NCBI GenBank assembly: GCA_003559395.1
Contig: PWLL01000004.1
Location: forward strand, 1 to 11,479
Source of the DNA: Candidatus Iainarchaeum sp.
Lineage (GTDB): Archaea; Iainarchaeota; Iainarchaeia; Iainarchaeales; CSSED10-239
Length of the DNA stretch: 11,479 nt
Direction of reading: 5' to 3'
Positions 1-8,920 of the stretch are shown piece after piece. Under the pieces are notes generated by a model. The model saw only the letters and a program-made list of their open reading frames with translations. It was not told the origin of the DNA and ran no database searches. How positions within the stretch are numbered: the first letter of the stretch is position 1; each line of letters begins with the position of its first letter. Position numbers and translations under genes: made by a program.

Positions 1-6
1 TATAAT
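1..6 (+). promoter_or_regulatory. Probable -10 hexamer of a promoter cut by the window edge
   Basis: The window opens with TATAATGTAATTACAAAAATAAAAGAAAGGAGAAAA..ATG. This is the same -10/leader/RBS layout as the complete promoter and leader at 996-1053. The -35 would lie outside the window. Confidence 0.4.
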
Positions 7-41
7 GTAATTACAAAAATAAAAGAAAGGAGAAAATAAAA

Positions 42-866
42 ATGAATAAAGATTATTTCGGAATAGTTGACTGCGAAACTTGCACTATCCCTGAATTGAA
101 AAAACATAGTGATAATGCGGGACTGAATTTTCCTTTAATCTATGATGTAGCAATACAAATACAAGATAAAGAGGGAAAAATTTTTCATAGGCAACAATGG
201 ATAATATCTGAAACATTTAGCAGGGAATATTTTAATACTGCGTATTATGTAGAAAAAAGACCATTTTATGTAAAACTTGTAAAAGAAAACCCAGAAATTT
301 TAGTTACTTGGGAGCAAGCAAAGATAAAAATGCTCGAGATAATGGAGAAATATAATATAATCGCCTGTGCATACAATGCCTTTTTTGACTTCAAAAAAGC
401 CTTTCATAGTACAAATAGATTTGTTAATGCTTTGTATGGTCTTAACAATAGTGAAACGCTGAACAAATTAATAAAAAATGTTTTGTATTATCAAAAAAAT
501 CAAAAAAAACTTGCTAAAAAATACAAAAACCCCAACAGTCAAAGATTTTGGCTTATTGATAGGTACTTCCCTATAATTGACATCTGGAACTTTGCCTGTC
601 AAACAGTTTTCCAAACAGTAGAGTATAAAGAAATGGCTGTTAAAAATGGCTGGTATAGTCCTGCTGGAAACTATACTACAAATGCAGAAGTGGCTTATCG
701 TTTTATTACAAATAATGTAAATTTTATCGAAAAACACACCGCATTAGAAGATGTAATCATTGAAGGTGAAATATTAAAATACATCTTTGATAACTACAAA
801 GTAAAAACTCCATATGGAATAGAGGGTTTTCCATGGAGGAAGGTTGGAAAAGTACCTAAAAAGTAA
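42..866 (+). CDS. DEDDh-type 3'-5' exonuclease (DnaQ/RNase T-like fold)
   Basis: 274-aa ORF with an AGGAG RBS about 9 nt upstream. Exo I is GIVDCET (D10, E12), Exo II is YNAFFDF, and Exo III is HTALEDV (H-x4-D). Confidence 0.75.
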   Translation: MNKDYFGIVDCETCTIPELKKHSDNAGLNFPLIYDVAIQIQDKEGKIFHRQQWIISETFSREYFNTAYYVEKRPFYVKLVKENPEILVTWEQAKIKMLEIMEKYNIIACAYNAFFDFKKAFHSTNRFVNALYGLNNSETLNKLIKNVLYYQKNQKKLAKKYKNPNSQRFWLIDRYFPIIDIWNFACQTVFQTVEYKEMAVKNGWYSPAGNYTTNAEVAYRFITNNVNFIEKHTALEDVIIEGEILKYIFDNYKVKTPYGIEGFPWRKVGKVPKK

Positions 867-870
867 AAAA

Positions 871-893
871 AGGCGAGAAATCGTCTTTTAATA
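871..893 (+). terminator. Weak intrinsic terminator
   Basis: AGGCGA-GAAA-TCGTCT hairpin (one G:U pair) followed by TTTTAATAA, directly after the stop codon of 42-866. Confidence 0.4.
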
Positions 894-895
894 AT

Positions 896-907
896 TTACC
901 CAACTAA
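896..907 (-). repeat. TTAGTTGGGTAA 12-mer, the only inverted copy
   Basis: The + strand reads TTACCCAACTAA, the exact reverse complement of the 12-mer found 13 times in + orientation. Confidence 0.9.
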
Positions 908-995
908 TTATTGGTAAGATAAAACAAGAGAAATGAAAGTTCAAATGGATTTAATTAGGTAATTATATTAATAAAATTAGTTAAGTGACTTATCA

Positions 996-1024
996 TTGAC
1001 AAAAATTTTATTTTATGGTATAAT
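996..1024 (+). promoter_or_regulatory. Consensus sigma70-type promoter with extended -10
   Basis: TTGACA (996-1001), a 17-nt spacer ending in TGG, then TATAAT (1019-1024). Confidence 0.8.
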
Positions 1025-1053
1025 GCAATTACAATAAAGAAAGGAGAAAAACC

Positions 1054-1227
1054 ATGAAAAAAAAGTATGTACTATGGACAGTTGCAGCAGGCAACGGATT
1101 TAAGTATGAGGTTACACTCTACGAGGGAGAAAAAGAAGGTATACCATCCTATAAAACTCTAAAAACATTCAATACAAAGAAAGAAGCAAAATCTTTCCTT
1201 AAAGAAAAAAGAAAGGGAATTAAATAG
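1054..1227 (+). CDS. Small hypothetical protein (57 aa), missing from the ORF track
   Basis: Translation is MKKKYVLWTVAAGNGFKYEVTLYEGEKEGIPSYKTLKTFNTKKEAKSFLKEKRKGIK. It has an AAAGGAGAAAAACC-ATG RBS, its own consensus promoter upstream and a terminator overlapping the stop codon. Confidence 0.7.
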   Translation: MKKKYVLWTVAAGNGFKYEVTLYEGEKEGIPSYKTLKTFNTKKEAKSFLKEKRKGIK

Positions 1228-1250
1228 GGCGAGAAGCCCTTTTATTTTTT
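1226..1250 (+). terminator. Intrinsic terminator
   Basis: AGGGC-GAGAA-GCCCT hairpin followed by TTTATTTTTT. Confidence 0.55.
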
Positions 1251-1261
1251 TAGTTGGGTAA
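1250..1261 (+). repeat. TTAGTTGGGTAA 12-mer copy
   Basis: Exact 12-mer. Confidence 0.9.
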
Positions 1262-1282
1262 TTTATTCTCTTTTGTTAAAAT

Positions 1283-1294
1283 TTAGTTGGGTAA
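1283..1294 (+). repeat. TTAGTTGGGTAA 12-mer copy
   Basis: Exact 12-mer. Confidence 0.9.
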
Positions 1295-1339
1295 ACCGCA
1301 ATTACAAATGTAGGTTATACTTAAATCACAAGCTACAAT

Positions 1340-1467
1340 TTTAGTTGGGTAAAAAAAATTTAGTTGGGTAAAAAAAATTTAGTTGGGTAAAAAAAAATTT
1401 AGTTGGGTAAAAAAATTTAGTTGGGTAAAAGAAAATTTAGTTGGGTAAAAAAAATTTAGTTGGGTAA
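1340..1467 (+). repeat. Iteron-like tandem array: 7 copies of TTTAGTTGGGTAA plus an A7-9 tract
   Basis: 12-mer cores start at 1341, 1360, 1379, 1399, 1417, 1437 and 1456, giving spacings of 19, 19, 20, 18, 20 and 19 bp. Each core is followed by an A-tract. The array ends 8 bp before the -35 at 1475. Confidence 0.9.
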
Positions 1468-1474
1468 CTAATGA

Positions 1475-1503
1475 TTGACAAAACCCTTATTTTATAATAT
1501 AAT
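1475..1503 (+). promoter_or_regulatory. Consensus sigma70-type promoter
   Basis: TTGACA (1475-1480), a 17-nt spacer, then TATAAT (1498-1503). A second overlapping TATAAT at 1493-1498 has only a 12-nt spacer. Confidence 0.7.
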
Positions 1504-1532
1504 ATATATATAAAGCAAGAAAGGAGGTATAT

Positions 1533-1880
1533 ATGAATATAAATTATAATTGCCCTGTACCTGTCATCAACAACAAAAAAAAGTATGTTTTATATAATAT
1601 ATATATAGGCTCTAAAAAGTTGAATTATATAAAAATAGGCACTACTAATAACCCTGAAAGGCGGTTCAAAGAGATTTCAAAATATTATGATAGCGATATC
1701 ATAGTGAACTGGATTTCTCCCCCTATGACTAAATACTCCGCTCTTCGTTTCGAGGACAGGTTCAAAGAAGAGAAAAAAAGCAAAGGCTGGTTGTTTGTTC
1801 CAAATGACAAATTCATTAAACCAGTAAGGGTAAAGGAGGAAAAAATAAAAATCAGAAAAGAATATGAGTTCTCTTATTGA
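1533..1880 (+). CDS. T5orf172 / GIY-YIG-superfamily-like domain protein
   Basis: 115-aa ORF with a strong AAAGGAGG RBS. The pattern KYVLYNIYIG..YIKIGTTNNPERRFKEI..RFEDRFKE resembles the GIY / (Y/K)IG / R / E pattern of GIY-YIG and T5orf172 domains. The assignment comes from motif recall only. Confidence 0.5.
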   Translation: MNINYNCPVPVINNKKKYVLYNIYIGSKKLNYIKIGTTNNPERRFKEISKYYDSDIIVNWISPPMTKYSALRFEDRFKEEKKSKGWLFVPNDKFIKPVRVKEEKIKIRKEYEFSY

Positions 1881-1896
1881 GGACTCTATTTTTTAT

Positions 1897-1908
1897 TTAG
1901 TTGGGTAA
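1897..1908 (+). repeat. TTAGTTGGGTAA 12-mer copy
   Basis: Exact 12-mer, followed by AATCTTTTTTTAGTCAA. Confidence 0.9.
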
Positions 1909-1978
1909 ATCTTTTTTTAGTCAATTTTTTCAGTAATTATCCGCAACTTTTCTACTTTTGTAGACATTTAGTAAAATT

Positions 1979-1990
1979 TTAGTTGGGTAA
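1979..1990 (+). repeat. TTAGTTGGGTAA 12-mer copy (extended form)
   Basis: Exact 12-mer within AATTTTAGTTGGGTAAATTTTTTTTTAATTAAC. This is almost the same 32-mer as at 2562-2595. Confidence 0.9.
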
Positions 1991-2006
1991 ATTTTTTTTT
2001 AATTAA

Positions 2007-2031
2007 CTACAATTACAAATTATAATTGTAG
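2007..2031. repeat. 9-bp inverted repeat
   Basis: CTACAATTA-caaatta-TAATTGTAG. The CAATTACAA-type motif recurs in leaders and intergenic DNA (near 10, 1026, 1300, 4015 and 10808). A (CA)n run follows at 2033-2046. Confidence 0.6.
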
Positions 2032-2073
2032 TCCACACACACACAAACTTAATTAGTTATATAGTTAAGCTAG

Positions 2074-2095
2074 AAAGTGCGGGCAGCCGCACTTT
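2074..2095. terminator. GC-rich hairpin downstream of the minus-strand gene 2109-2411
   Basis: AAAGTGCGG-GCAG-CCGCACTTT is a 9-bp stem, flanked on both sides by the direct repeat AAGCTAG. The T-tail is poor in both directions. Confidence 0.4.
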
Positions 2096-2108
2096 AAGCT
2101 AGAGGCCT

Positions 2109-2411
2109 TTACAATCCATAAGTCCAATCAACACTTACAGTGAGCACGCCCATTTTATCACGAAAAGCACCATTTTTTGCGATTCGGCTTTTTACCACAT
2201 ACCCCTCATCTCTTAATACACCTAGACCTACAATTATCACTCTTGGATCCCACATAGTTAAGTTAAATTTAAGGACTGTGTTATAATTCCCTTTTTTTGC
2301 CTCTTGTTTTATTTCTGAATAACATACTTTCAAAAATTCATCATATTCGGGTTTTTTAAGATGAACCTCATTTGCCGTTATACAAGCATCCTGTGCATAA
2401 AATTTATCCAT
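2109..2411 (-). CDS. Hypothetical protein (100 aa)
   Basis: ORF with an AAAGGAGA RBS 7 nt upstream (reverse complement of 2412-2428) and its own consensus promoter. Confidence 0.7.
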   Translation of the reverse strand: MDKFYAQDACITANEVHLKKPEYDEFLKVCYSEIKQEAKKGNYNTVLKFNLTMWDPRVIIVGLGVLRDEGYVVKSRIAKNGAFRDKMGVLTVSVDWTYGL

Positions 2412-2443
2412 TTATTATCTCCTTTTTTATTTATTATACTATA

Positions 2444-2472
2444 ATTATATCATAGTTGAACTATTTTGTCAA
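2444..2472 (-). promoter_or_regulatory. Consensus sigma70-type promoter (minus strand)
   Basis: The reverse complement reads TTGACA (2472-2467), a 17-nt spacer ending in TGA, then TATAAT (2449-2444). Confidence 0.8.
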
Positions 2473-2530
2473 GCGTTTGTTTTATATAAACTTAATGTAA
2501 TTAATAGTTTAATCACCTAATGAAGTTTGA

Positions 2531-2567
2531 AATTCGCCTAAAAAGTAAAAAAGTTAGGCGAATTTTT
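2531..2567 (+). terminator. Terminator-like hairpin
   Basis: AATTCGCCTA / TAGGCGAATT is a 10-bp stem with a 14-nt A-rich loop, followed by TTT. No + strand gene lies immediately upstream, so its role is uncertain. Confidence 0.4.
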
Positions 2568-2577
2568 AGTTGGGTAA
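2566..2577 (+). repeat. TTAGTTGGGTAA 12-mer copy (extended form)
   Basis: Exact 12-mer within AATTTTTAGTTGGGTAAATTTTTTTTTAGTTAAC. Confidence 0.9.
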
Positions 2578-2740
2578 ATTTTTTTTTAGTTAACCTTTAA
2601 CCATAATTACCATCCAATGACTATAATTTACACTAATAATCAAATAAGCAGCTACAAATTACACCAATGGTCATATCAGCAACCACAGTTGGCATTAACC
2701 ACCAGCTACAAACATCCTTAAAAATTCATAATCTGTTTAC

Positions 2741-2769
2741 TTGACTTTGAGCTAAAACTATAGTATAAT
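2741..2769 (+). promoter_or_regulatory. Tandem promoter 1 of 3
   Basis: TTGACT (2741-2746), a 17-nt spacer, then TATAAT (2764-2769), followed by ATATATATA. Confidence 0.75.
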
Positions 2770-2827
2770 ATATATATAAGATAAAGAAAAGGAAAAAATT
2801 AAATTAATTCGTTCACAAAAAATTCAC

Positions 2828-2856
2828 TTGATTTTTTCCGAAATGTATGGTATAAT
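2828..2856 (+). promoter_or_regulatory. Tandem promoter 2 of 3
   Basis: TTGATT (2828-2833), a 17-nt spacer ending in TGG, then TATAAT (2851-2856). Confidence 0.7.
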
Positions 2857-2912
2857 ATATATATATAAGATAAAGGAAAGAAAAAAAAATAAAAAAGATA
2901 AAAACAAAATGC

Positions 2913-2941
2913 TTGACTTTCATCGAACCGTATGTTATAAT
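2913..2941 (+). promoter_or_regulatory. Tandem promoter 3 of 3
   Basis: TTGACT (2913-2918), a 17-nt spacer ending in TGT, then TATAAT (2936-2941). Confidence 0.8.
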
Positions 2942-2993
2942 ATAAGTATAATAAGAATTGAAAAGTAGTTAAGACACAGAAAGGGGTCAAATC

Positions 2994-3278
2994 ATGGCTA
3001 TGAAAGAAATGGACAGGAAAAATGCTGTTAGGGAGGAAGCTCTCAAGGAAATCAATCTGGAAGGTTACACTCAGGTAGCAACCGCATCTTTTATCAAGGA
3101 AGTTGAGAATGGTTTCGTAGAGGTTAAAGTAATTGCAAAAAACGCTACCTTCGGTGAAGCTGAACTCGCAGAAGCAGTTGAAAACTACAACTTCGAGCTT
3201 GAGGAAAGGGCAAAAAGAGAAGCCAAAGCTGAGGCTAAAAGGAAAGAAAAAGCCGAAAAAGCAAAGTCTAAAGAATAA
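2994..3278 (+). CDS. Hypothetical protein (94 aa) with an acidic core and a Lys/Glu/Ala-rich tail
   Basis: ORF with an AAAGGGG RBS. The C-terminus is RAKREAKAEAKRKEKAEKAKSKE. It sits behind three stacked promoters and upstream of the ncRNA and tRNA genes, with no terminator in between. Confidence 0.7.
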   Translation: MAMKEMDRKNAVREEALKEINLEGYTQVATASFIKEVENGFVEVKVIAKNATFGEAELAEAVENYNFELEERAKREAKAEAKRKEKAEKAKSKE

Positions 3279-3280
3279 TC

Positions 3281-3311
3281 TCCTAACCTGAGCAAGTTAT
3301 AAAACTGCTCC
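3281..3311 (+). repeat. Hairpin-motif copy (stem GAGCA/TGCTC, loop AGTTATAAAAC)
   Basis: TCCTAACCTGAGCAAGTTATAAAACTGCTC. It belongs to the family found at 7001-7233. Confidence 0.7.
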
Positions 3312-3690
3312 CTTATGAGGGCACGTGTATAAATATCCCTCAATACTCGAAAAAAGGTTTATAGTAGAGACGGAGATTCCAAACCAGAAACCTTTGAGCC
3401 TTAATCCTAGGATAGTAACGTATAGCGGTCCCGCTGGGAAATCCGATAAAGTTACTCCAATAATGGAAGGCGACAGTCCACGAGGTAATTCTCCAGAAGC
3501 ACTGTTAGGGAAACTCACCAGACGCAGCAGTCTGAGCAAAAAAATGCTAAACCAATGGTAAATTGGGGTTGCGTCCCCACGGATAGCATAAGTCCATTCA
3601 CTGCAGAGATAAAGTTATGTAAAGTCACGGATGAGCCGTGCCATTGGTAGTTATTCATTGGTAGGCATACCGAATGACTAAATGTAGCCC
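3311..3690 (+). ncRNA. Candidate structured ncRNA I (about 380 nt, class unknown)
   Basis: The region is GC-enriched relative to its flanks. It carries overlapping ORFs on both strands that lack an RBS. Local helices are dense: TGAGGG/CCCTCA (3316/3337), AAAGGTTT/AAACCTTT (3353/3387), AGTAAC/GTTACT (3414/3451) enclosing TCCC-GCT-GGGA, CAGAC/GTCTG (3519/3530), CCAAT/ATTGG (3552/3562) and CACGG/CCGTG (3626/3636). A hairpin-motif copy lies on each side, and the region is co-oriented with the downstream tRNAs. Confidence 0.55.
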
Positions 3691-3716
3691 GACCCGAGCA
3701 AGTCGTTAAACTGCTT
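3690..3716 (+). repeat. Hairpin-motif copy (stem GAGCA/TGCTT, loop AGTCGTTAAAC)
   Basis: CGACCCGAGCAAGTCGTTAAACTGCTT. Confidence 0.7.
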
Positions 3717-3730
3717 TCTTCAAAAAAAAC

Positions 3731-3808
3731 GGGGGTGTAGTTTAAGTGGGAAAGCATCTGTTTTGCAAGCAGAAGAAGTGAAGAGTTCGAATCTCTCCAC
3801 CTCCACCA
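3731..3808 (+). tRNA. tRNA-Ala (anticodon TGC)
   Basis: The acceptor stem GGGGGTG/CACCTCC has G3:U70. The anticodon loop is TTTGCAA and the T-loop is TTCGAAT. A73 and CCA are encoded. The hand fold gives a slightly long variable region. Confidence 0.8.
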
Positions 3809-3814
3809 TTACAA

Positions 3815-3887
3815 GGCAGAGAGAATCGGTATTCAAGTAAGGTTCATACCCTTGCCTTCGTAGGTTCGACTCCTACCTCTGCAACCA
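3815..3887 (+). tRNA. Atypical tRNA-like gene, anticodon CAT
   Basis: The T-arm GTAGG-TTCGACT-CCTAC is canonical and the anticodon loop is TTCATAC. The D-arm is GAAT-CGGT-ATTC, with only a 4-nt loop and no GG. There are 2-3 nt between the D and anticodon stems, and pair 1:72 is a G/A mismatch. CCA is encoded. Confidence 0.5.
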
Positions 3888-3894
3888 GCCCACA

Positions 3895-3937
3895 TCCTAA
3901 CGCTTGGCGAGCTGATGGTACTGGTTAAACAGTTAGG
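3895..3937 (+). repeat. Hairpin-motif variant with an insertion in the loop
   Basis: TCCTAAC-gcttggcgagctgatggtactggt-TAAAC-AGTTAGG. The outer stem CCTAAC/GTTAGG is retained. Confidence 0.55.
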
Positions 3938-3980
3938 GTTCAAAAAAAAGCCAAAATTGTCCTCAAAAGGGGCGTAAAAT

Positions 3981-4009
3981 GGAGTTACATTCGTAACTTC
4001 ATTTTTTTA
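3981..4009 (+). terminator. Intrinsic terminator of the 2741-3890 transcription unit
   Basis: GGAGTTAC-ATTC-GTAACTTC is an 8-bp stem followed by ATTTTTTTA. Confidence 0.75.
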
Positions 4010-4125
4010 TGCCGCGACTACAAATATAAATTATAATTCTACAATATAGACCTAACAAGTCCACTCGCCGCACTATAATTAAGTCAAACTAAAAACTTAG
4101 AGCTAGAAACTTGATATATTAACCC

Positions 4126-4154
4126 TTGACTTTCATTTCCAATTATGTTATACT
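4126..4154 (+). promoter_or_regulatory. Promoter of tRNA block 2
   Basis: TTGACT (4126-4131), a 17-nt spacer ending in TGT, then TATACT (4149-4154). Confidence 0.75.
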
Positions 4155-4222
4155 ATATATAGAATAAAAAAAGATAGTGTTTTTTGTAAAGACTAAACAT
4201 TAATTTTTTACAAGAGGTATAT

Positions 4223-4298
4223 GGGGTTTTAGTTCAGAGGTTAGAGCATTTCTCTCATAAGGAAAAAGCCCAAGGTTCAAATCCTTGAAGCCCCACCA
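4223..4298 (+). tRNA. tRNA with anticodon CAT (Met or lysidine-Ile)
   Basis: Acceptor GGGGTTT/AAGCCCC, D-arm GTTC-AGAGGTTA-GAGC, anticodon loop CTCATAA, T-arm CAAGG-TTCAAAT-CCTTG, then A73 and CCA. Confidence 0.85.
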
Positions 4299-4301
4299 CG
4301 A

Positions 4302-4378
4302 TCCTCACTCGTCCAACTGGTAGGACACCGCACTTTTAATGCGGATTAGTATAGGTTCAAGTCCTATGTGAGGAACCA
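4302..4378 (+). tRNA. tRNA-Lys (TTT)
   Basis: Acceptor TCCTCAC/GTGAGGA, anticodon arm CCGCA-CTTTTAA-TGCGG, T-arm ATAGG-TTCAAGT-CCTAT, CCA encoded. Confidence 0.85.
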
Positions 4379-4388
4379 AAAAATATAA

Positions 4389-4462
4389 GGGTCTTTATTT
4401 CAACGGTAGAATTCTGGTCTCCAGAACCAGCGATTAAGGTTCAAATCCTTAAAGACCTGCCA
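4389..4462 (+). tRNA. tRNA-Trp (CCA)
   Basis: Acceptor GGGTCTT/AAGACCT (G1:U72), anticodon arm CTGGT-CTCCAGA-ACCAG, T-arm TAAGG-TTCAAAT-CCTTA, then G73 and CCA. Confidence 0.8.
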
Positions 4463-4466
4463 ACAT

Positions 4467-4542
4467 GTGGGTGTAGCTCAGCTGGGAGAGCATTTGTCTT
4501 ACAAACAAGAGGCCGGAAGTTCAATCCTTCCCACCCATACCA
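4467..4542 (+). tRNA. tRNA-Val (TAC)
   Basis: Acceptor GTGGGTG/CACCCAT, D-arm GCTC-AGCTGGGA-GAGC, anticodon loop CTTACAA, T-arm GGAAG-TTCAATC-CTTCC, CCA encoded. Confidence 0.85.
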
Positions 4543-4545
4543 TAT

Positions 4546-4620
4546 GGGAGAGTAGCTCAATGGTTGAGCCGTAAACTGTTAATTTACTCGATGCAAGTTC
4601 AAATCTTGTCTCTCCCTCCA
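4546..4620 (+). tRNA. tRNA-Asn (GTT)
   Basis: Acceptor GGGAGAG/CTCTCCC, anticodon arm GTAAA-CTGTTAA-TTTAC, T-loop TTCAAAT, CCA encoded. Confidence 0.85.
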
Positions 4621-4635
4621 ATATAAAATAAACGT

Positions 4636-4710
4636 CTTTTCGTGATGAAATGGATATCATAGGAAACTTCTAATTTCTCTTTCCCAGTTCGAATCTGGGC
4701 GGAAAGACCA
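4636..4710 (+). tRNA. tRNA-Arg (TCT)
   Basis: Acceptor CTTTTCG/CGGAAAG, D-arm ATGA-AATGGATA-TCAT, anticodon loop CTTCTAA, T-arm CCCAG-TTCGAAT-CTGGG, CCA encoded. Confidence 0.8.
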
Positions 4711-4729
4711 TTTTATTAAAATTTAACAT

Positions 4730-4806
4730 GGTGCAGTAGTTCAGATGGTTAGAATGCCAGCCTGTCACGCTGGAGGTCGAGGGTTCGAGACCCTTCTGCA
4801 TCGCCA
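4730..4806 (+). tRNA. tRNA-Asp (GTC)
   Basis: Acceptor GGTGCAG/CTGCATC, anticodon arm CCAGC-CTGTCAC-GCTGG, T-loop TTCGAGA, then G73 and CCA. Confidence 0.85.
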
Positions 4807-4809
4807 TAT

Positions 4810-4884
4810 GGATGGGTAGCTCAACAGGGAGAGCGCGAGGTTGAAGCCCTTGAGAAGATAGTTCGAGCCTGTCCTCATCCACCA
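4810..4884 (+). tRNA. tRNA-Phe (GAA)
   Basis: Acceptor GGATGGG/CTCATCC, D-arm GCTC-AACAGGGA-GAGC, anticodon loop TTGAAGC, T-arm GATAG-TTCGAGC-CTGTC, CCA encoded. Confidence 0.85.
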
Positions 4885-4960
4885 GATGTAGTTAGTTTAA
4901 CGGTAAAATGCTGGAATGTGACTCCAGAGATGCTGGGTTCGATTCCCGCACTACATACCA
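4885..4960 (+). tRNA. tRNA-His (GTG) with encoded G-1
   Basis: G-1 (4885) directly abuts the CCA of tRNA-Phe. Acceptor ATGTAGT/ACTACAT, anticodon arm CTGGA-ATGTGAC-TCCAG, T-loop TTCGATT. The discriminator is A rather than C. Confidence 0.8.
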
Positions 4961-4969
4961 AAATAATAT

Positions 4970-5047
4970 GTCTCGGTAATCGAATTGGTATAGATACAGA
5001 ACTTAAAATTCTGAAAGCTGAGGGTTCGACTCCCTCTCGAGGCACCA
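4970..5047 (+). tRNA. tRNA with Leu anticodon TAA but a short (class I-like) variable region
   Basis: Acceptor GTCTCGG/TCGAGGC, D-region ATCG-AATTGGTAT-AGAT, anticodon arm CAGAA-CTTAAAA-TTCTG, about 6-nt variable region AAAGCT, T-arm GAGGG-TTCGACT-CCCTC, then A73 and CCA. It is 75 nt before the CCA. Confidence 0.7.
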
Positions 5048-5050
5048 TAC

Positions 5051-5127
5051 GCTTCGGTAGCTAAACTGGCACAGCCACTCCCTTGTAAGGAGAAGATTTG
5101 TGAGTTCGACTCTCACCCGAAGCTCCA
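5051..5127 (+). tRNA. tRNA-Thr (TGT)
   Basis: Acceptor GCTTCGG/CCGAAGC, anticodon loop CTTGTAA, T-arm GTGAG-TTCGACT-CTCAC, CCA encoded. Confidence 0.8.
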
Positions 5128-5130
5128 TAT

Positions 5131-5208
5131 CTGGGTGTGGCTCAGTTAGGCTAGAGTGCTTGTTTTGGAAACAAGAAGTCGAAGGTTCAAATCCTTCTGC
5201 CCAGACCA
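5131..5208 (+). tRNA. tRNA-Pro (TGG)
   Basis: Acceptor CTGGGTG/TGCCCAG (C1:G72), anticodon arm CTTGT-TTTGGAA-ACAAG, T-arm GAAGG-TTCAAAT-CCTTC, then A73 and CCA. Confidence 0.85.
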
Positions 5209-5211
5209 TTT

Positions 5212-5290
5212 GCCTCGGTAGCAGAATTGGTATATGCTTCAGTCTTAGAAACTGGGAAAACTAAAGGTTCGACTCCTTTGCGAGGCACCA
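5212..5290 (+). tRNA. tRNA with Leu anticodon TAG but a short (class I-like) variable region
   Basis: This is a paralogue of 4970-5047. They share G(T/C)CTCGGTA, GAATTGGTATA, GGTTCGACTCC and CGAGGCACCA. The anticodon arm is TCAGT-CTTAGAA-ACTGG and the variable region GAAAACT is about 7 nt. A73 and CCA follow. Confidence 0.7.
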
Positions 5291-5293
5291 TAT

Positions 5294-5382
5294 GCGGGTA
5301 TAGCGTGCTAAGGTAGACACATTAGACTGTAAATCTAAAGGCTATTAGTCCCGAGTGGGTTCGATTCCCTCTTCCCGCACCA
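5294..5382 (+). tRNA. tRNA-Tyr (GTA), class II
   Basis: Anticodon arm TTAGA-CTGTAAA-TCTAA, long variable arm (GGCT-ATT-AGTC), T-loop TTCGATT, CCA encoded. It is 86 nt before the CCA. The hand fold has one T:T mismatch in each of the acceptor and T stems. Confidence 0.75.
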
Positions 5383-5402
5383 AAAAATAAAAGGAGAAAA
5401 AT

Positions 5403-5624
5403 ATGAAAGTTGAAAGAATGTTAAAAAAATATAAAAATAAAATTTTAAGAGTTTGGGAGAAAGAACACACTGAAGATGAGTGTTTTTTTGAAACATTAAG
5501 AAATTGGTATTACTTACCAAATAAAGACATTTTATTAGAGTTCTCTAATAATAAAAAGCACTATAGTTATGAACTTTTAAGTAAAATAGTTTTAGCGTAT
5601 TCTAAAAAAGATAATGAAAATTAA
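5403..5624 (+). CDS. Hypothetical protein (73 aa)
   Basis: ORF with an AAAGGAGAAAAAT-ATG RBS, starting 20 nt after tRNA-Tyr with no intervening terminator. Confidence 0.6.
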   Translation: MKVERMLKKYKNKILRVWEKEHTEDECFFETLRNWYYLPNKDILLEFSNNKKHYSYELLSKIVLAYSKKDNEN

Positions 5625-5627
5625 ACC

Positions 5628-5656
5628 TTGACTTCCGCCCGCACTTATGTTATAAT
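5628..5656 (+). promoter_or_regulatory. Consensus promoter with a GC-rich 12-mer in the spacer
   Basis: TTGACT (5628-5633), a 17-nt spacer, then TATAAT (5651-5656). The spacer contains CCGCCCGCACTT, the reverse complement of AAGTGCGGGCGG at 9004-9015. Confidence 0.8.
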
Positions 5657-5731
5657 ATATATATAATAATAAAAAAGTAAAGGTAATAAGGAAGCATTGA
5701 AAAATAAAAAAAAGAGCATAAGGTAAAGCAA

Positions 5732-6142
5732 ATGTTAAGAGAGTATATTAATTCAATAGTATATGATGAAGACAACTATGAACTTGAACAAGAAATAGTT
5801 AGAAAATACCCTGTTTTAAGAGCAAGTCGGTCTTATTGGATTTACGATATTCCTCGTGGGTGGTTAATTAATTTTGGTGAAGACCTTGTTAGAGATCTAA
5901 ATGAAGCTGTAAGCAAATACAATTCTTTAATCGAATTCAACATTCTTGAAGTAAAGGAGAAATTTGGAGGGCTTAGAATTTACATTGGTGCTATGAATTG
6001 CAATATTTTCTTTAATGCGGTTAATGAAGTTATTGAAAAATATGAACAACTTTCATTTGTAGTCTGTGTTGGCTGTGGCAATCCCGCAACAAAAATAAGT
6101 AAAACATGGATTGTACCAGTATGTGAAAAGTGTGAACCTTAA
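5732..6142 (+). CDS. Hypothetical protein (136 aa) with a KEKFGGLR motif and a C-terminal CxxC..CxxC zinc ribbon
   Basis: ORF with an AAGGT RBS. The motif is EVKEKFGGLRIY and the C-terminus is CVGCGNPATKISKTWIVPVCEKCEP. The stop codon lies 3 nt before the first TLD-like RNA. Confidence 0.7.
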   Translation: MLREYINSIVYDEDNYELEQEIVRKYPVLRASRSYWIYDIPRGWLINFGEDLVRDLNEAVSKYNSLIEFNILEVKEKFGGLRIYIGAMNCNIFFNAVNEVIEKYEQLSFVVCVGCGNPATKISKTWIVPVCEKCEP

Positions 6143-6145
6143 CAT

Positions 6146-6224
6146 GGGGCAAAAATGGCTCGAACAACTATAATACCGTCCAGGAATAGTTGAGAGGAAA
6201 GTTCAATTCTTTCTTGCTCCACCA
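6146..6224 (+). ncRNA. tmRNA TLD-like minigene A (76 nt plus CCA)
   Basis: GGGGCAA-AAATGGCTCGAAC-[CAACTAT-14 nt loop-ATAGTTG]-AGAG-GAAAG-TTCAATT-CTTTC-TTGCTCC-A-CCA. It has G3:U70 and ACCA. A TGGnTCGA(A)C D-analogue replaces a D-arm. There is no 7-nt anticodon loop. Confidence 0.6.
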
Positions 6225-6227
6225 TAG

Positions 6228-6303
6228 GCTCTTATAGCTCAGATGGTAGAGCGCTTCCGTGGTAAGGAAGAAGTCATCGGTTCAATCCCGATTAAGAGCT
6301 CCA
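6228..6303 (+). tRNA. tRNA-Thr (GGT)
   Basis: Acceptor GCTCTTA/TAAGAGC, D-arm GCTC-AGATGGTA-GAGC, anticodon arm CTTCC-GTGGTAA-GGAAG, T-arm ATCGG-TTCAATC-CCGAT, CCA encoded. Confidence 0.85.
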
Positions 6304-6307
6304 ATAT

Positions 6308-6373
6308 GGGGATGTAATGGCTTCGACAGGGATTTATTTCTGGACATCGGTTCAATTCCGATCATCTCCACCA
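6308..6373 (+). ncRNA. tmRNA TLD-only minigene B (63 nt plus CCA)
   Basis: GGGGATG-TAATGGCTTCGAC-AGGGATTT-A-TTTCTGGAC-ATCGG-TTCAATT-CCGAT-CATCTCC-A-CCA. It matches the 5' end (GGGGCUGAUUCUGGAUUCGACGGGAUUU) and the 3' end (..UUUCGGACGCGGGUUCAACUCCCGCCAGCUCCACCA) of E. coli SsrA, as recalled, joined directly. G3:U70 is present. Confidence 0.7.
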
Positions 6374-6377
6374 GTAT

Positions 6378-6452
6378 GTGAGATTAGTTTAATTGGTAGA
6401 ACTTCAGCCTTCCAAGCTGATTGCACGGGTTCAATTCCCGTATCTCACTCCA
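6378..6452 (+). tRNA. tRNA-Gly (TCC)
   Basis: Acceptor GTGAGAT/ATCTCAC, anticodon arm TCAGC-CTTCCAA-GCTGA, T-arm ACGGG-TTCAATT-CCCGT, CCA encoded. Confidence 0.85.
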
Positions 6453-6455
6453 CAT

Positions 6456-6530
6456 AGGGATATAGTATAATGGTTAGTGCGCCACTCTGATAAGGTGGTA
6501 GTCATAGTTCGATTCTATGTATCCCTACCA
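6456..6530 (+). tRNA. tRNA-Ile (GAT)
   Basis: Acceptor AGGGATA/TATCCCT, anticodon arm CCACT-CTGATAA-GGTGG, T-arm CATAG-TTCGATT-CTATG, CCA encoded. Confidence 0.85.
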
Positions 6531-6541
6531 AAAATCCTAAA

Positions 6542-6616
6542 CTCTCGGTATTTCAATGGACAGAATGCTTGGCTACGAACTAAGTGATGTAGGTTCGAAT
6601 CCTACCCGAGAGTCCA
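6542..6616 (+). tRNA. tRNA-Arg (ACG)
   Basis: Acceptor CTCTCGG/CCGAGAG, anticodon arm CTTGG-CTACGAA-CTAAG, T-arm GTAGG-TTCGAAT-CCTAC, CCA encoded. Confidence 0.85.
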
Positions 6617-6642
6617 ATACTTAAACCTATGATATAATATAT

Positions 6643-6719
6643 GGCTTCGTAGTGGAATTGGTCAACACGCCGCCCTTTCAAGGCGGAGACTGAGGGTTCA
6701 AACCCCTCCGAAGTCACCA
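6643..6719 (+). tRNA. tRNA-Glu (TTC)
   Basis: Acceptor GGCTTCG/CGAAGTC, anticodon arm CCGCC-CTTTCAA-GGCGG, T-arm GAGGG-TTCAAAC-CCCTC, CCA encoded. Confidence 0.85.
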
Positions 6720-6726
6720 AATAAAT

Positions 6727-6814
6727 GGAAAGATGGCAGAGTTTGGCTTATTGCATCGGTCTTGAAAACCGAAGGGTTTCGGCTCCGTGGGTTCGAATCC
6801 CACTCTTTCCGCCA
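6727..6814 (+). tRNA. tRNA-Ser (TGA), class II
   Basis: Acceptor GGAAAGA/TCTTTCC, anticodon arm TCGGT-CTTGAAA-ACCGA, long variable arm, T-arm GTGGG-TTCGAAT-CCCAC, then G73 and CCA. Confidence 0.85.
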
Positions 6815-6859
6815 ATAAAGAGGTGATATTATGGGTAAAAAACCTGCAATTATAAAATG

Positions 6860-6888
6860 TTGACTTCAATTAAAAATTATGTTATAAT
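6860..6888 (+). promoter_or_regulatory. Duplicated promoter, copy 1
   Basis: TTGACT (6860-6865), a 17-nt spacer ending in TGT, then TATAAT (6883-6888). Confidence 0.8.
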
Positions 6889-6942
6889 ATATATATAATA
6901 AAATAAAGGTTTAGTTATAAATAAAATTTCACTTATAAAATG

Positions 6943-6971
6943 TTGACTTCAATTAAAAATTATGTTATAAT
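6943..6971 (+). promoter_or_regulatory. Duplicated promoter, copy 2
   Basis: TTGACT (6943-6948), a 17-nt spacer ending in TGT, then TATAAT (6966-6971). Confidence 0.8.
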
Positions 6972-7000
6972 ATATATATAATAAAATAAAGGTTTAGTTG

Positions 7001-7233
7001 GTCCTGAGCAAGACATTAAACTACTTAGCAACAGAAAAGTCCTAAACAAAAGACTCCTTTGCTCACCTTAAACTGTTTAGTCCTAAGCCAGACTATAAAA
7101 TGCTTTATGTCCAGCAAGACGATAAACTGCTATTGCAGTGTCCTAAACAAGACCTGTGAGCTTTGATAAAAAGTTTTAGAACTTTTTATCCCCAAACTGT
7201 TTAGTCCTAAACAAGACTATAAACTGCTTATAG
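7001..7233 (+). repeat. Six abutting copies of the (G)TCCTAAACAAGAC-N-AAACTG(C/T)TTAG hairpin motif
   Basis: Units lie at 7001-7028, 7039-7080, 7081-7108, 7109-7135, 7140-7204 and 7205-7233. The 5-bp inner stem is (G/A)A(G/A)CA / TG(C/T)T(C/T) and the 11-nt loop is AGAC-NNN-AAAC. Units 2 and 5 carry 15-nt and 40-nt insertions inside the loop. The unit 5 insertion is itself a hairpin, GATAAAAAGTT/AACTTTTTATC. Confidence 0.75.
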
Positions 7234-7245
7234 TATAAATTTAAT

Positions 7246-7810
7246 GTACCTTGAAAAAATAATATTTGTATCTTAGTGTATGACACGCCTGTGTGCTAAG
7301 AGCCTCCGCATATTAAGAACCTACATAGAGGGATACCTTTATAAGAGTTCTTTAGTTGTTAAGCAATTAACAATTAGAAGAGCCAAAAGCTCAACAATAG
7401 GGATGCGTGCTGTTCTCAGGAAGAAGATAAGATATGTAAAGGACTCGAGAAGGTAATATACGCCTACAGTGTAGGAATGAGCCAATATGCAAATAGGGTA
7501 AGACCTATTTGACCACTATTGGTAAGCTGACCCAACTTCTTTAGCCGTGATGTGCAAGAAATTGTGCTATAAGAGATTCCTTACAGTAAAAGTAGCCTAA
7601 GGCTTAAAGAATATGGAACTGATAATTCCGTTTTATTTAATAAGCTGAACGGTAGGTGAAATTTACAGGTAGAAAATCCTGTCTGTGCTTGACAAGGGTG
7701 AAAAGTATTAGGGTAGCTCCTTAATATTCAGCTTCACTCTCACAGTGATCGAACATCCCATTCTGTTGATGGTAAAACGAAAGTTTACAAATATTATTTT
7801 TTCAAGGTAC
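7246..7810 (+). ncRNA. Candidate large structured ncRNA II (565 nt), possibly ROOL/GOLLD-class
   Basis: GTACCTTGAAAAAATAATATTTGTA (7246-7270) is the perfect reverse complement of 7786-7810. The interior is GC-enriched and has no credible ORF. It is rich in hairpins, some with G:U pairs and a GNRA loop: TCTTAGTGTA/TGTGCTAAGA (7271/7292), TTGTTAA-GCAA-TTAACAA (7357-7374), GAGC/GCTC (7380/7389), CCTAC/GTAGG (7462/7470), AATAGG/CCTATT (7492/7504) and ACAGG/CCTGT (7665/7678). It lies downstream of the tandem promoters. Confidence 0.6.
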
Positions 7811-8140
7811 TTTAGACACACTTTCCGTGTGAATAATATACTTTAAATGTTAATAGACCATACCAAAACTATTAATCCTAAACATGATTTAAAAAATGTT
7901 ACTATGCTACCAGACGCAACTGGTCTCTAAAAGGGTGAGTGGTTCTCATATATGTATATATCTATGTATACATTAAACCTTTTAGAAATACAACAATACC
8001 TTAGCAAGACACAAATATAGCCGACTGTGTTAAGGACCGAAAAGGTATAACCAGCCGAATTTAGGTCTTTAGGGCTTAAGCTTGAGTTCTTGTGAGAATT
8101 CTGACTATATGTGAAGTCATAGAAACGCATAGGATTTAAT
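7811..8140 (+). ncRNA. Further non-coding, probably transcribed and structured segment
   Basis: No ORF here has an RBS. It contains two more hairpin-motif variants (7876-7905 and 7999-8035). Helices include CACAC/GTGTG (7817/7827), ACCAG/CTGGT (7909/7920) and ACCTTTT/AAAAGGT (7977/8040). A possible closing helix pairs ATTAATCCT (7871) with AGGATTTAAT (8131). No terminator separates it from 7810. Confidence 0.35.
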
Positions 8141-8170
8141 AAAGAGGGTTAGATACGTCTAACCCTCTTT
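8141..8170 (+). other. 13-bp perfect hairpin (processing site or attenuator/terminator)
   Basis: AAAGAGGGTTAGA-TACG-TCTAACCCTCTTT followed by AATTT. It sits 9 nt upstream of the tRNA-Gln-like gene. Confidence 0.5.
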
Positions 8171-8179
8171 AATTTATAT

Positions 8180-8253
8180 AGGGATATGTTGTAATGATAG
8201 CAAAGAGCCCTTTGAAGGCTTTAGTCGAGGTTTAAGTCCTTGTATCCCTGCCA
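8180..8253 (+). tRNA. tRNA-Gln (TTG), atypical elbow
   Basis: Acceptor AGGGATA/TATCCCT, identical to tRNA-Ile at 6456. The anticodon arm is GAGCC-CTTTGAA-GGCTT. The D-loop AATGATA lacks GG and the T-loop TTTAAGT lacks C56. G73 and CCA follow. Confidence 0.65.
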
Positions 8254-8262
8254 AAAAAAAAG

Positions 8263-8290
8263 AGCACGTGTGCATTTCCGCACACGTGCT
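8263..8290. terminator. Bidirectional intrinsic terminator
   Basis: AGCACGTGTGC-ATTTCC-GCACACGTGCT is an 11-bp stem. An A9 run lies on the left (a T-run for the minus strand) and ATACTTTT on the right. It separates the + RNA unit from the convergent minus-strand genes. Confidence 0.8.
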
Positions 8291-8296
8291 ATACTT

Positions 8297-8623
8297 TTAC
8301 TTTACTACAATTTCATAGTCAGTTAATCTATAAAATGAACTTCCTTGTGAGTTTATAAAAAAACTACCATCCCCAAATTCAATTTTACCAAAATACCATT
8401 TATCTATATCTGAATGATAAAATTTAACATCATCCCCTTCATAAACAGGAACATCAAATCTATCAAATATTCCAACCCATCTAAAAGGTACAGATACCCC
8501 AAATGGAACCCCCATTTTTTCTCCTTTTTTTATCTCTATAACTGTAAATTTTTTTTCAAAGTTGATTGCTAAAACATCATATTTTTTTTCTAAAAATTTC
8601 ACTCTATATTCTGATGGTTTCAT
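8297..8623 (-). CDS. YopX-like phage protein (108 aa)
   Basis: ORF with an AAAGGAGA RBS. The C-terminal pattern FDVPVYEGDDVKF..GKIEFGDGSFFI resembles the YopX-family IYEGDI..G.V.F..G.F core. The assignment comes from motif recall only. Confidence 0.55.
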   Translation of the reverse strand: MKPSEYRVKFLEKKYDVLAINFEKKFTVIEIKKGEKMGVPFGVSVPFRWVGIFDRFDVPVYEGDDVKFYHSDIDKWYFGKIEFGDGSFFINSQGSSFYRLTDYEIVVK

Positions 8624-8641
8624 AAAAATCTCCTTTATTTA

Positions 8642-8920
8642 TTACCAGTTAATTATGAGCATAAGTTCAGATTCAGAGTGAATAAAAGCACTCTTTATAG
8701 AAACAGAAAAGCCACTGTCCCAAAGTTCTTTTTTAAGTAAGTTAATAATAGGGAGGTCTTTTTTATAAAAATCTATCTTCGCCTCTGACTTTCCTTCATT
8801 TGCTCTTACTAATATAGTTTTATTAATAAATTTAACCACTGTTTCTTTATCTAATTTTACTCTTGCTTCTTTAGTTATTTGTTTTATGTCTGCGGCCCGC
8901 ACAAATTTAATTTCTTCCAT
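8642..8920 (-). CDS. Hypothetical protein (92 aa)
   Basis: ORF with a strong AAGGAGGAATC-ATG RBS, directly downstream of the minus-strand promoter. Confidence 0.7.
   Translation of the reverse strand: MEEIKFVRAADIKQITKEARVKLDKETVVKFINKTILVRANEGKSEAKIDFYKKDLPIINLLKKELWDSGFSVSIKSAFIHSESELMLIINW

Follow-up and report, generated by a model that had tools for sequence, protein, structure and literature searches.

An 11,479-nt stretch of DNA (positions 1 to 11,479 of contig PWLL01000004.1, assembly GCA_003559395.1; hereafter the window) carries on its forward strand a gene for ROOL RNA, a large non-coding RNA of an already known family. The 565-nt element in question had been proposed in a first-pass annotation, made from the sequence alone, to be a large ornate RNA of the ROOL or GOLLD kind, and it is borne out as ROOL: that 7246-7810 (+) is a full-length copy of this gene is virtually certain. 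The element is a rather divergent member of the family and not a new class. Overall, the locus is very probably a ROOL gene in a phage tRNA island; transcription, processing, cage assembly and a translation-related role are proposed for it below with varying confidence.

7246-7810, + strand: ROOL RNA gene (RF03087), full closing helix included; Rfam covariance-model match and covariation.

We scanned the entire window against all 4227 Rfam families. The ROOL model, RF03087, matches 7248-7806 (+) with 298.4 bits (gathering score 99.1) and an E value of 2.6e-68, and the match runs end to end, covering model positions 1-574 of 574 without truncation. This search with the Rfam ROOL model, which had been suggested in the first-pass annotation, was decisive. 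ROOL is the sole large match of the window among the 4227 families, none of the GOLLD or other large-RNA models giving a match at the gathering score or at E <= 1. The description of the interior as GC-rich and lacking a plausible open reading frame (ORF) also holds: the 515 nt inside the closing helix have a GC content of 38.6%, compared with 29.7% in the protein-coding flanks and about 45% in the tRNA arrays, and the longest ORFs within the element encode 58 aa (+) and 48 aa (-).

ROOL RNAs are roughly 550-650 nt long, and the copy in the window, at 565 nt, lies close to the family mean of 581. It shares with the family a long closing helix (P1), a full-length match to the model, a variable linker in the expected place, the GGAUAC loop, the blocks AAGUAGCC, CUGAA-G-GGUGAAA and UCAG, a GUA-stem-CGAAG hairpin, and placement within a phage tRNA island alongside a gene resembling that of transfer-messenger RNA (tmRNA). 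Rfam curates ROOL as a family, for which about 1,600 non-redundant members and three structures from cryogenic electron microscopy (cryo-EM) have been reported; Cousin et al. 2017 is another of its references. Its members are large non-coding RNAs of phages and prophages found near tRNA islands (Weinberg et al. 2017, PMC5737381; Kretsch et al. 2025, PMC12286853).

The divergence of the primary sequence, taken alone, could be read as a sign of a new class of ornate RNA, or of a GOLLD relative, whose likeness to ROOL is superficial. A sensitive blastn search with the element alone returned no close relative among the INPHARED phages, and blastn against other ROOL loci yielded only three short, weak alignments. 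GOLLD (Rfam accession presumably RF01998) is likewise large and ornate, occurs in phages and prophages near tRNA genes and forms RNA-only cages. However, GOLLD RNAs are larger, often >800 nt, and unrelated in sequence and fold (PMC12286853), and the GOLLD option fails in the window even at E <= 1. The new-class option, which the first-pass annotation had kept alongside it, is ruled out by the full-length ROOL match, and the element has both the invariant blocks and the stems that covary across ROOLs. Either version of this alternative is thus vanishingly improbable.

To collect homologues, we searched IMG/VR for two invariant ROOL blocks combined in a degenerate pattern; this gave at least 120 viral contigs, 40 of which were then scanned with Rfam. 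A full-length ROOL is present in all 40 and in one metagenome locus (L363), with scores of 255-406 bits. The window and 28 homologues (29 sequences) were aligned with MAFFT, and the pairs of the Rfam structure, as placed on the window, were transferred to the other sequences. The projected consensus fold is paired in 68.9% of cells, compared with 54.4% when columns are shuffled and 36-47% when the structure is slid by 1-3 columns. Double-sided changes number 684 against 305 expected, at least one compensatory change occurs in 104 of the 138 projected pairs, and none of 500 shuffles attains any of five covariation measures. Covariation, named at the outset as the check to be made, is therefore strong. 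The alignment contains 62 invariant columns, including AAGUAGCC, CUGAA-G---GGUGAAA, UCAG and GAUA. At one near-invariant site the window has AAUAUACGC in place of AAUAGACGC, a deviation shared with L363. Aligned to the covariance model, the window forms canonical pairs at only 121 of the model's 159, because the model places P1 one base out of register.

The sampling of this family was shaped in part by the linker. The first ROOL pattern and the single metagenome scan demanded a linker of 50-80 nt, which excluded the 47-nt type found in the window, and the metagenome scan yielded one unrelated ROOL, L363. A pattern for short linkers gave 37 loci in IMG/VR, none of them close to the window.

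The 25-bp helix that closes the element is ROOL stem P1.

7246-7270, + strand: 5' strand of P1 (GTACCTTGAAAAAATAATATTTGTA); exact inverted repeat, paired in the predicted fold.
7786-7810, + strand: 3' strand of P1; exact inverted repeat, paired in the predicted fold.

The perfect closing helix that had first drawn attention to the element was recovered exactly: the two strands are reverse complements over 25 nt, and about 7e-7 perfect inverted repeats of this length would be expected by chance in 11.5 kb of the same composition. Pairing can be extended to 29 nt with one mismatch (97%; 7242-7270 with 7786-7814). The 25-mer has two copies only in the window when up to 3 mismatches are allowed, and any match was found in 0 of 200 shuffles. 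In the minimum-energy fold of a precursor spanning 7190-7870, all 25 of the 25 P1 pairs form. Among 38 distinct ROOLs, the window included, every one has a terminal helix with its own, unrelated sequence (examples from homologues are AAUCAAUAUCUGAAUCAUGCUUAUUAUU, ACACGGAUUUUAAACAAUCUACUGAAU and UUUUUACAACUUUAAGCAUUGUAUUAUUC); most of these helices are roughly 20-30 bp long and most contain G·U pairs. Because P1 is unrelated in sequence and often includes G·U pairs across ROOLs, what is conserved is an RNA helix rather than a repeat in the DNA. Uninterrupted Watson-Crick runs in P1 have a median of 9.5 bp, or 16.5 bp with G·U allowed, and the 25 bp of the window are the longest such run among the 38. 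The sole oddity of this P1 is its perfection.

That perfection, a 25-nt inverted repeat without a G·U pair, is DNA-repeat-like and could suggest a miniature inverted-repeat DNA element with the 25-bp arms as its terminal inverted repeats, an outcome that the first-pass annotation had listed among those that would count against an RNA interpretation. However, the arms are in the place of P1 in a full-length ROOL match, and every homologue has a P1 of its own, unrelated in sequence and with many G·U pairs. The bases just outside the arms extend the inverted repeat (TAAT/TTTA, 3 of 4 paired) and do not form a direct target-site duplication, the arms have no further copy in the window, and no transposase gene lies nearby. 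A mobile element is accordingly an exceedingly improbable explanation, and we retain P1 of a ROOL RNA.

Structures of three ROOL RNAs (env-120, E. faecalis and L. salivarius) have been determined by cryo-EM and show hexameric or octameric cages made of RNA only (PMC12286853; 2026 review, PMC12990946); a ROOL cryo-EM study of 2025 by a second group is cited in PMC12990946. Several internal elements of the window can be placed against this framework.

7272-7300, + strand: ROOL stem 2, with CUUAG/CUAAG (7272-7276 / 7296-7300), a GUG(A/U)A internal loop and a distal ACAC/GUGU hairpin.
7352-7377, + strand: 11-bp hairpin with a GCAA (GNRA) tetraloop, a hairpin of the ROOL model; the family consensus loop is GUGA.
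7598-7644, + strand: variable linker, 47 nt; a low-conservation loop of the ROOL model.
7703-7727, + strand: conserved hairpin with loop GUAGCU (GUCGCU in most homologues) containing self-complementary AGCU; model and covariation.

In the 29-sequence alignment the stem 7272-7276 / 7296-7300 is 97.9% paired and shows compensatory changes in 4 of its 5 pairs. A 10-bp helix with three G·U pairs had been drawn here (7271-7280 with 7292-7301); its strands are complementary and its lower five pairs are this covarying stem, whereas compensatory changes are lacking at the three G·U pairs, which are part of the conserved GUG(A/U)A loop. Similarly, the 7-bp helix capped by GCAA is real and forms the top of the 11-bp hairpin, but its seven perfect pairs lie at 7356-7373 rather than at 7357-7374. 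The linker is located between the AAGUAGCC stem and CUGAAUG and is poorly conserved; at 47 nt it is short, the linkers of sampled homologues measuring 22-80 nt, which is the range that the search patterns allowed. In the solved cages the linker is a disordered loop directed towards the cavity (PMC12286853). The hairpin at 7703-7727 may correspond to the symmetric kissing loop between halves in the cryo-EM structures. A long-range pairing of GCUGACCC (7526) with GGGUAGC (7711), put forward as a possibility in the first-pass annotation, is complementary in the window and is not conserved: the two segments are 32.1% paired across the alignment, compared with 31.4% in shuffled controls, with no covariation, and we rejected it. 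The partner of this joining (J) segment in other ROOLs is the L8 loop.

In the solved cages, the joining segment J6/8 pairs with L8 of a neighboring chain, a contact termed bridge B4 that had been detected earlier by covariation (PMC12286853).

7491-7510, + strand: P8/L8-equivalent hairpin, AAAUAGG-GUAAGA-CCUAUUU; placed by alignment to the ROOL model.
7524-7535, + strand: J6/8-equivalent joining segment, AAGCUGACCCAA; atypical, the family consensus being AAUGCCAA; placed by alignment to the ROOL model.

In the B4 register, 4-5 bases are complementary in 26 of the 28 homologues of the alignment, and they covary clearly (UGGCA/UGCCA, UAGCA/UGCUA, UGACA/UGUCA, UGGUA/UACCA, UGGA/UCCA and UUGAC/GUCAA), and further examples occur beyond the alignment in L363 and in the short-linker loci. 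In the window, the L8 loop GUAAGA allows only 2 complementary bases with AAGCUGACCCAAC. The sole 4-bp option pairs GGGU (7496-7499) with ACCC (7530-7533), and for this the top two pairs of the hairpin must open. The complementarity of J6/8 and L8 thus appears to have been lost or re-registered, and judging from the aligned sequences the lack of a recognizable B4 contact is a real difference from other ROOLs. Because B4 belongs to the assembled cage and not to the Rfam definition of the family, its absence makes a cage less certain but leaves family membership untouched.

The ROOL gene appears to be embedded in a transcription unit with the following parts.

6837-6999, + strand: tandem duplicated promoter region, with 80-nt repeats at 6837-6916 and 6920-6999 (94% identity).
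6860-6888 and 6943-6971, + strand: predicted -35/-10 elements, TTGACT-17-TATAAT with an upstream TG; 11 of 12 consensus matches in both copies.
7000-7245, + strand: leader, about 250-270 nt, with six copies of a hairpin motif.
7811-8139, + strand: trailer, about 330 nt, with two degenerate copies of the leader motif (7875-7888, 7999-8011).
8140-8171, + strand: terminator-like hairpin, a 14-bp stem, 100% complementary, followed by AUUUAUAU.

The duplicated promoter reported from the sequence is confirmed as an 80-nt direct repeat in which each copy carries the same hexamers, spacing and TG, and the sites at 6860-6888 and 6943-6971 are, by their sequence, putative promoters. A further promoter-like site at about 4126-4154 (TTGACT-17-TATACT) precedes the tRNA array that starts at 4223; it shares the spacer end ATTATGTTATA with the ROOL promoters and is similar downstream (TATATATA). 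This resemblance to the duplicated ROOL promoter suggests that the non-coding RNA operons of the phage share one type of promoter.

The leader has no Rfam match. The trailer folds with -94.6 kcal/mol (z = -5.3), and 0 of 100 shuffles fold as well; a scan against Rfam with lax filters gave nothing credible for 7811-8139, which is probably structured and non-coding. An ORF of 67 aa on the minus strand (7927-8130) overlaps the trailer. The earlier statement that the element is followed by no terminator is correct for 7811-8139 and misses the hairpin at 8140-8171, which precedes the tRNA-Gln gene and is likely, from its sequence, to be the 3' end of the ROOL transcription unit. A second, G+C-rich hairpin of 11-12 bp at 8263-8290, flanked by an A-run and T-rich sequence, is terminator-like on both strands and divides the rightward RNA genes from leftward ORFs at 8297-8920. 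Pairing between leader and trailer beyond P1 was also considered and rejected, the energy of -14.1 kcal/mol comparing with -16.1 +/- 3.5 for shuffled sequence.

These parts suggest the following model. Transcription would proceed rightward from one or both copies of the sigma-70-type promoter (6860-6888, 6943-6971) and give a transcript of about 1.2-1.3 kb, made up of the leader, ROOL and the 330-nt trailer, with its 3' end at the hairpin 8140-8171. P1 would join both ends of the RNA and close the fold, and it could also serve as an RNase III-type processing stalk that frees ROOL from leader and trailer, which is plausible because P1 is a perfect duplex of >20 bp. Stalks of this kind are known from ribosomal RNA (rRNA) operons, in which long helices flanking 16S and 23S rRNA are cut by RNase III. 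The likeness, in which the ends of a large structured RNA form a long perfect duplex within a longer precursor, suggests by analogy that ROOL may be excised from its transcript in the manner of rRNA. The two systems differ in that P1 is part of the mature RNA in the solved ROOLs and that pairing in the window ends at 29 nt, with none into the leader or trailer. We consider it likely that 7246-7810 yields a discrete, stable RNA.

By homology with the three ROOLs solved by cryo-EM, the RNA would adopt a flat monomer fold, and kissing loops and A-minor contacts would then join copies of it in a hollow cage of dihedral symmetry, a homo-hexamer or homo-octamer in which the linker 7598-7644 is turned inward. 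By this analogy we put the formation of a cage by the ROOL of the window at an even chance, since one conserved in-plane contact is unrecognizable. Small structural changes are known to alter ROOL stoichiometry (PMC12990946), and with the B4 complementarity missing this member may therefore differ in its oligomeric state. The L. salivarius ROOL is reported to be abundant (PMC12286853). An abundant, phage-made RNA cage or scaffold could act on the translation apparatus during infection, by keeping tRNAs or ribosome-related cargo in store, sequestering them or shielding them. Such a role is tentatively suggested by the recurrent linkage of ROOL to tRNA and tmRNA genes of phages, with which it is probably also co-expressed.

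Several observations weigh against parts of this picture: (i) The score of 298 bits lies in the lower part of the ROOL range (255-406 bits among the 41 further loci). (ii) The L8 loop and J6/8 are hardly complementary, as described above. (iii) The outer helices of the multi-stem region (7412-7433 with 7749-7787) pair poorly in the window. (iv) The promoters and the terminator are consensus matches only. (v) The leader and trailer are unpaired beyond P1, hence there is no long processing stalk like that of rRNA. (vi) We know of no ROOL member with a known function.

The first three of these points, together with a blastn likeness to other ROOLs limited to three short, weak alignments, could indicate a decaying or functionally diverged ROOL that keeps the monomer fold and forms no canonical cage, or a different oligomer. 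However, the full model is covered and all invariant blocks are retained, and a strong duplicated promoter lies upstream. The perfect Watson-Crick P1, the longest among the 38 ROOLs, argues for ongoing selection and against decay, and known ROOLs already vary in stoichiometry through small structural changes. We consider such a diverged copy quite unlikely. Also unlikely is a further reading, in which this ROOL would be the founding example of a divergent sublineage, from a sediment phage, with B4 lost or re-registered, a different stoichiometry or a monomeric state, and an operon of non-coding RNAs that uses the hairpin motif of the leader, which also flanks 3310-3690, as a processing or protein-binding signal. 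A functional ROOL with the transcription unit outlined above remains our preferred interpretation.

In itself, the ROOL of the window matters little, as it belongs to a known family and sits in a textbook context, and the function of ROOL is no more testable from it than from existing members. It does extend ROOL to an apparent sediment phage with a sequence far from the members known from gut, rumen and Lactobacillales. As a natural variant with a perfect P1 and seemingly without one inter-subunit contact, it offers a cheap test of which contacts are needed for a cage, and the clean layout of promoter, leader, ROOL, trailer and terminator makes it a defined unit for expression studies. The tmRNA-like gene and the repeated hairpin motif described below may be more novel than the ROOL copy.

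The surroundings of the element, with tRNA genes, a tmRNA-like gene and phage-like ORFs, are the typical context of ROOL. ARAGORN identifies 23 tRNA genes, all on the + strand, 22 of them at 3731-6814 and a tRNA-Gln at 8180-8253, so that tRNA genes span from 3.5 kb upstream to 0.4 kb downstream of ROOL. Among the 40 homologue loci, at least 27 contain tRNAs and 8 a full tmRNA. A 274-aa ORF of the window matches phrog_20187 and shares about 31% identity with proteins of Enterococcus phages of about 140 kb and of human-gut phage contigs, and another ORF contains a T5orf172 domain; by these sequence matches, the ORFs of the window support a phage origin.

Relatives of the window are few. A megablast search of the whole window against the INPHARED phages found no close relative, a protein search of IMG/VR with the 274-aa ORF likewise returned no close relatives. 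Looking up exact proteins gave no more than two contigs, one of 5.5 kb from JGI and one of 1.4 kb from Logan, which overlap window positions 1-3469 and end before ROOL; a 189-aa ORF has no record. Over its first 3.5 kb the window matches a contig of JGI metagenome 3300000563 (SRR490128; record name SL_3KL_010_SED) at 99.7% identity; we take the sample to be soda-lake sediment. The source of the window thus appears to be a sediment metagenome, in contrast to the rumen, gut or Lactobacillales origin of other ROOLs.

Two side observations concern the tRNA islands. A second tRNA-Met(CAT) gene called by ARAGORN at 3815-3887 (+) scores 25.3 bits with the Rfam tRNA model, for which the threshold is 29, and may be atypical or degenerate. 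In two ROOL-bearing contigs, L075 (1558-1697) and L079 (6137-6225, 3168-3381), a skipping-rope RNA, a tRNA-Sec-like gene and a match to the permuted-tmRNA model are found in the tRNA islands; ROOL-bearing tRNA islands gather varied non-coding RNAs.

The tRNA island of the window contains one further RNA gene.

6308-6373, + strand: tmRNA-like gene of 66 nt with the tRNA-like domain only; Rfam tmRNA model, 75 bits, 310 internal model positions deleted.

This mini-tmRNA comprises a GGGGAUG/CAUCUCC acceptor stem with a G3·U pair, a D-loop analogue GGCUUCGAC, a T arm and an encoded ACCA end, and a 6-bp hairpin replaces the mRNA-like domain and the pseudoknots. A G3·U pair is the identity element for alanine. 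ARAGORN makes no call at this gene. Similar genes are widespread in viral contigs, a pattern describing the architecture finding at least 120 in IMG/VR (L243-L362). Among the matches listed, a 7-bp acceptor stem closes around the match in 115, and there are 94 distinct sequences of 65-85 nt, 71 of which have G3·U70 and none of which is called by ARAGORN. A possible role of the mini-tmRNA is to divert or modulate SmpB and trans-translation as a decoy or regulator. We found no description of phage tmRNA-like genes with only the tRNA-like domain in the literature searched, although one may still exist.

The hairpin motif of the leader consists of a 3-bp stem and an 8-nt loop, CYRARCMA, often with a 3' tail NNUAAAMUGCU.

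7001-7014, 7039-7054, 7080-7093, 7109-7120, 7140-7153 and 7204-7217, + strand: leader copies of the motif (GUC-CUAAACAA-GAC type).
3285-3312 and 3691-3717, + strand: other copies, one on either side of 3310-3690.

A tail of the form (N)NUAAA(C/A)U(G/A)CU follows four of the six leader copies. All copies are on the + strand and in non-coding stretches of the window, and variants of the stem keep pairing (AAC/GUU, GAC/GUC, GUC/GAC, AUC/GAU). The motif has 7 matches against 1.1 expected, a number reached in 0 of 200 shuffles, and the extended pattern has 7 against 0.33 expected. It was not found in 122 loci checked, other ROOL loci among them, nor was its 22-mer form in IMG/VR, where the bare 14-mer GTCCTAAACAAGAC gives single scattered chance matches only. 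The motif may be a processing or protein-binding signal.

The segment enclosed by the two distant motif copies, 3310-3690 (+), is about 380 nt long and located between a small ORF (2994-3278) and a tRNA-Ala gene. It contains no convincing ORF and has no Rfam match even with lax filters, and its folding z-score is only -1.9. With a GC content of 44% in a genome of 30% GC and the motif on both sides, it may be a further unclassified structured RNA.

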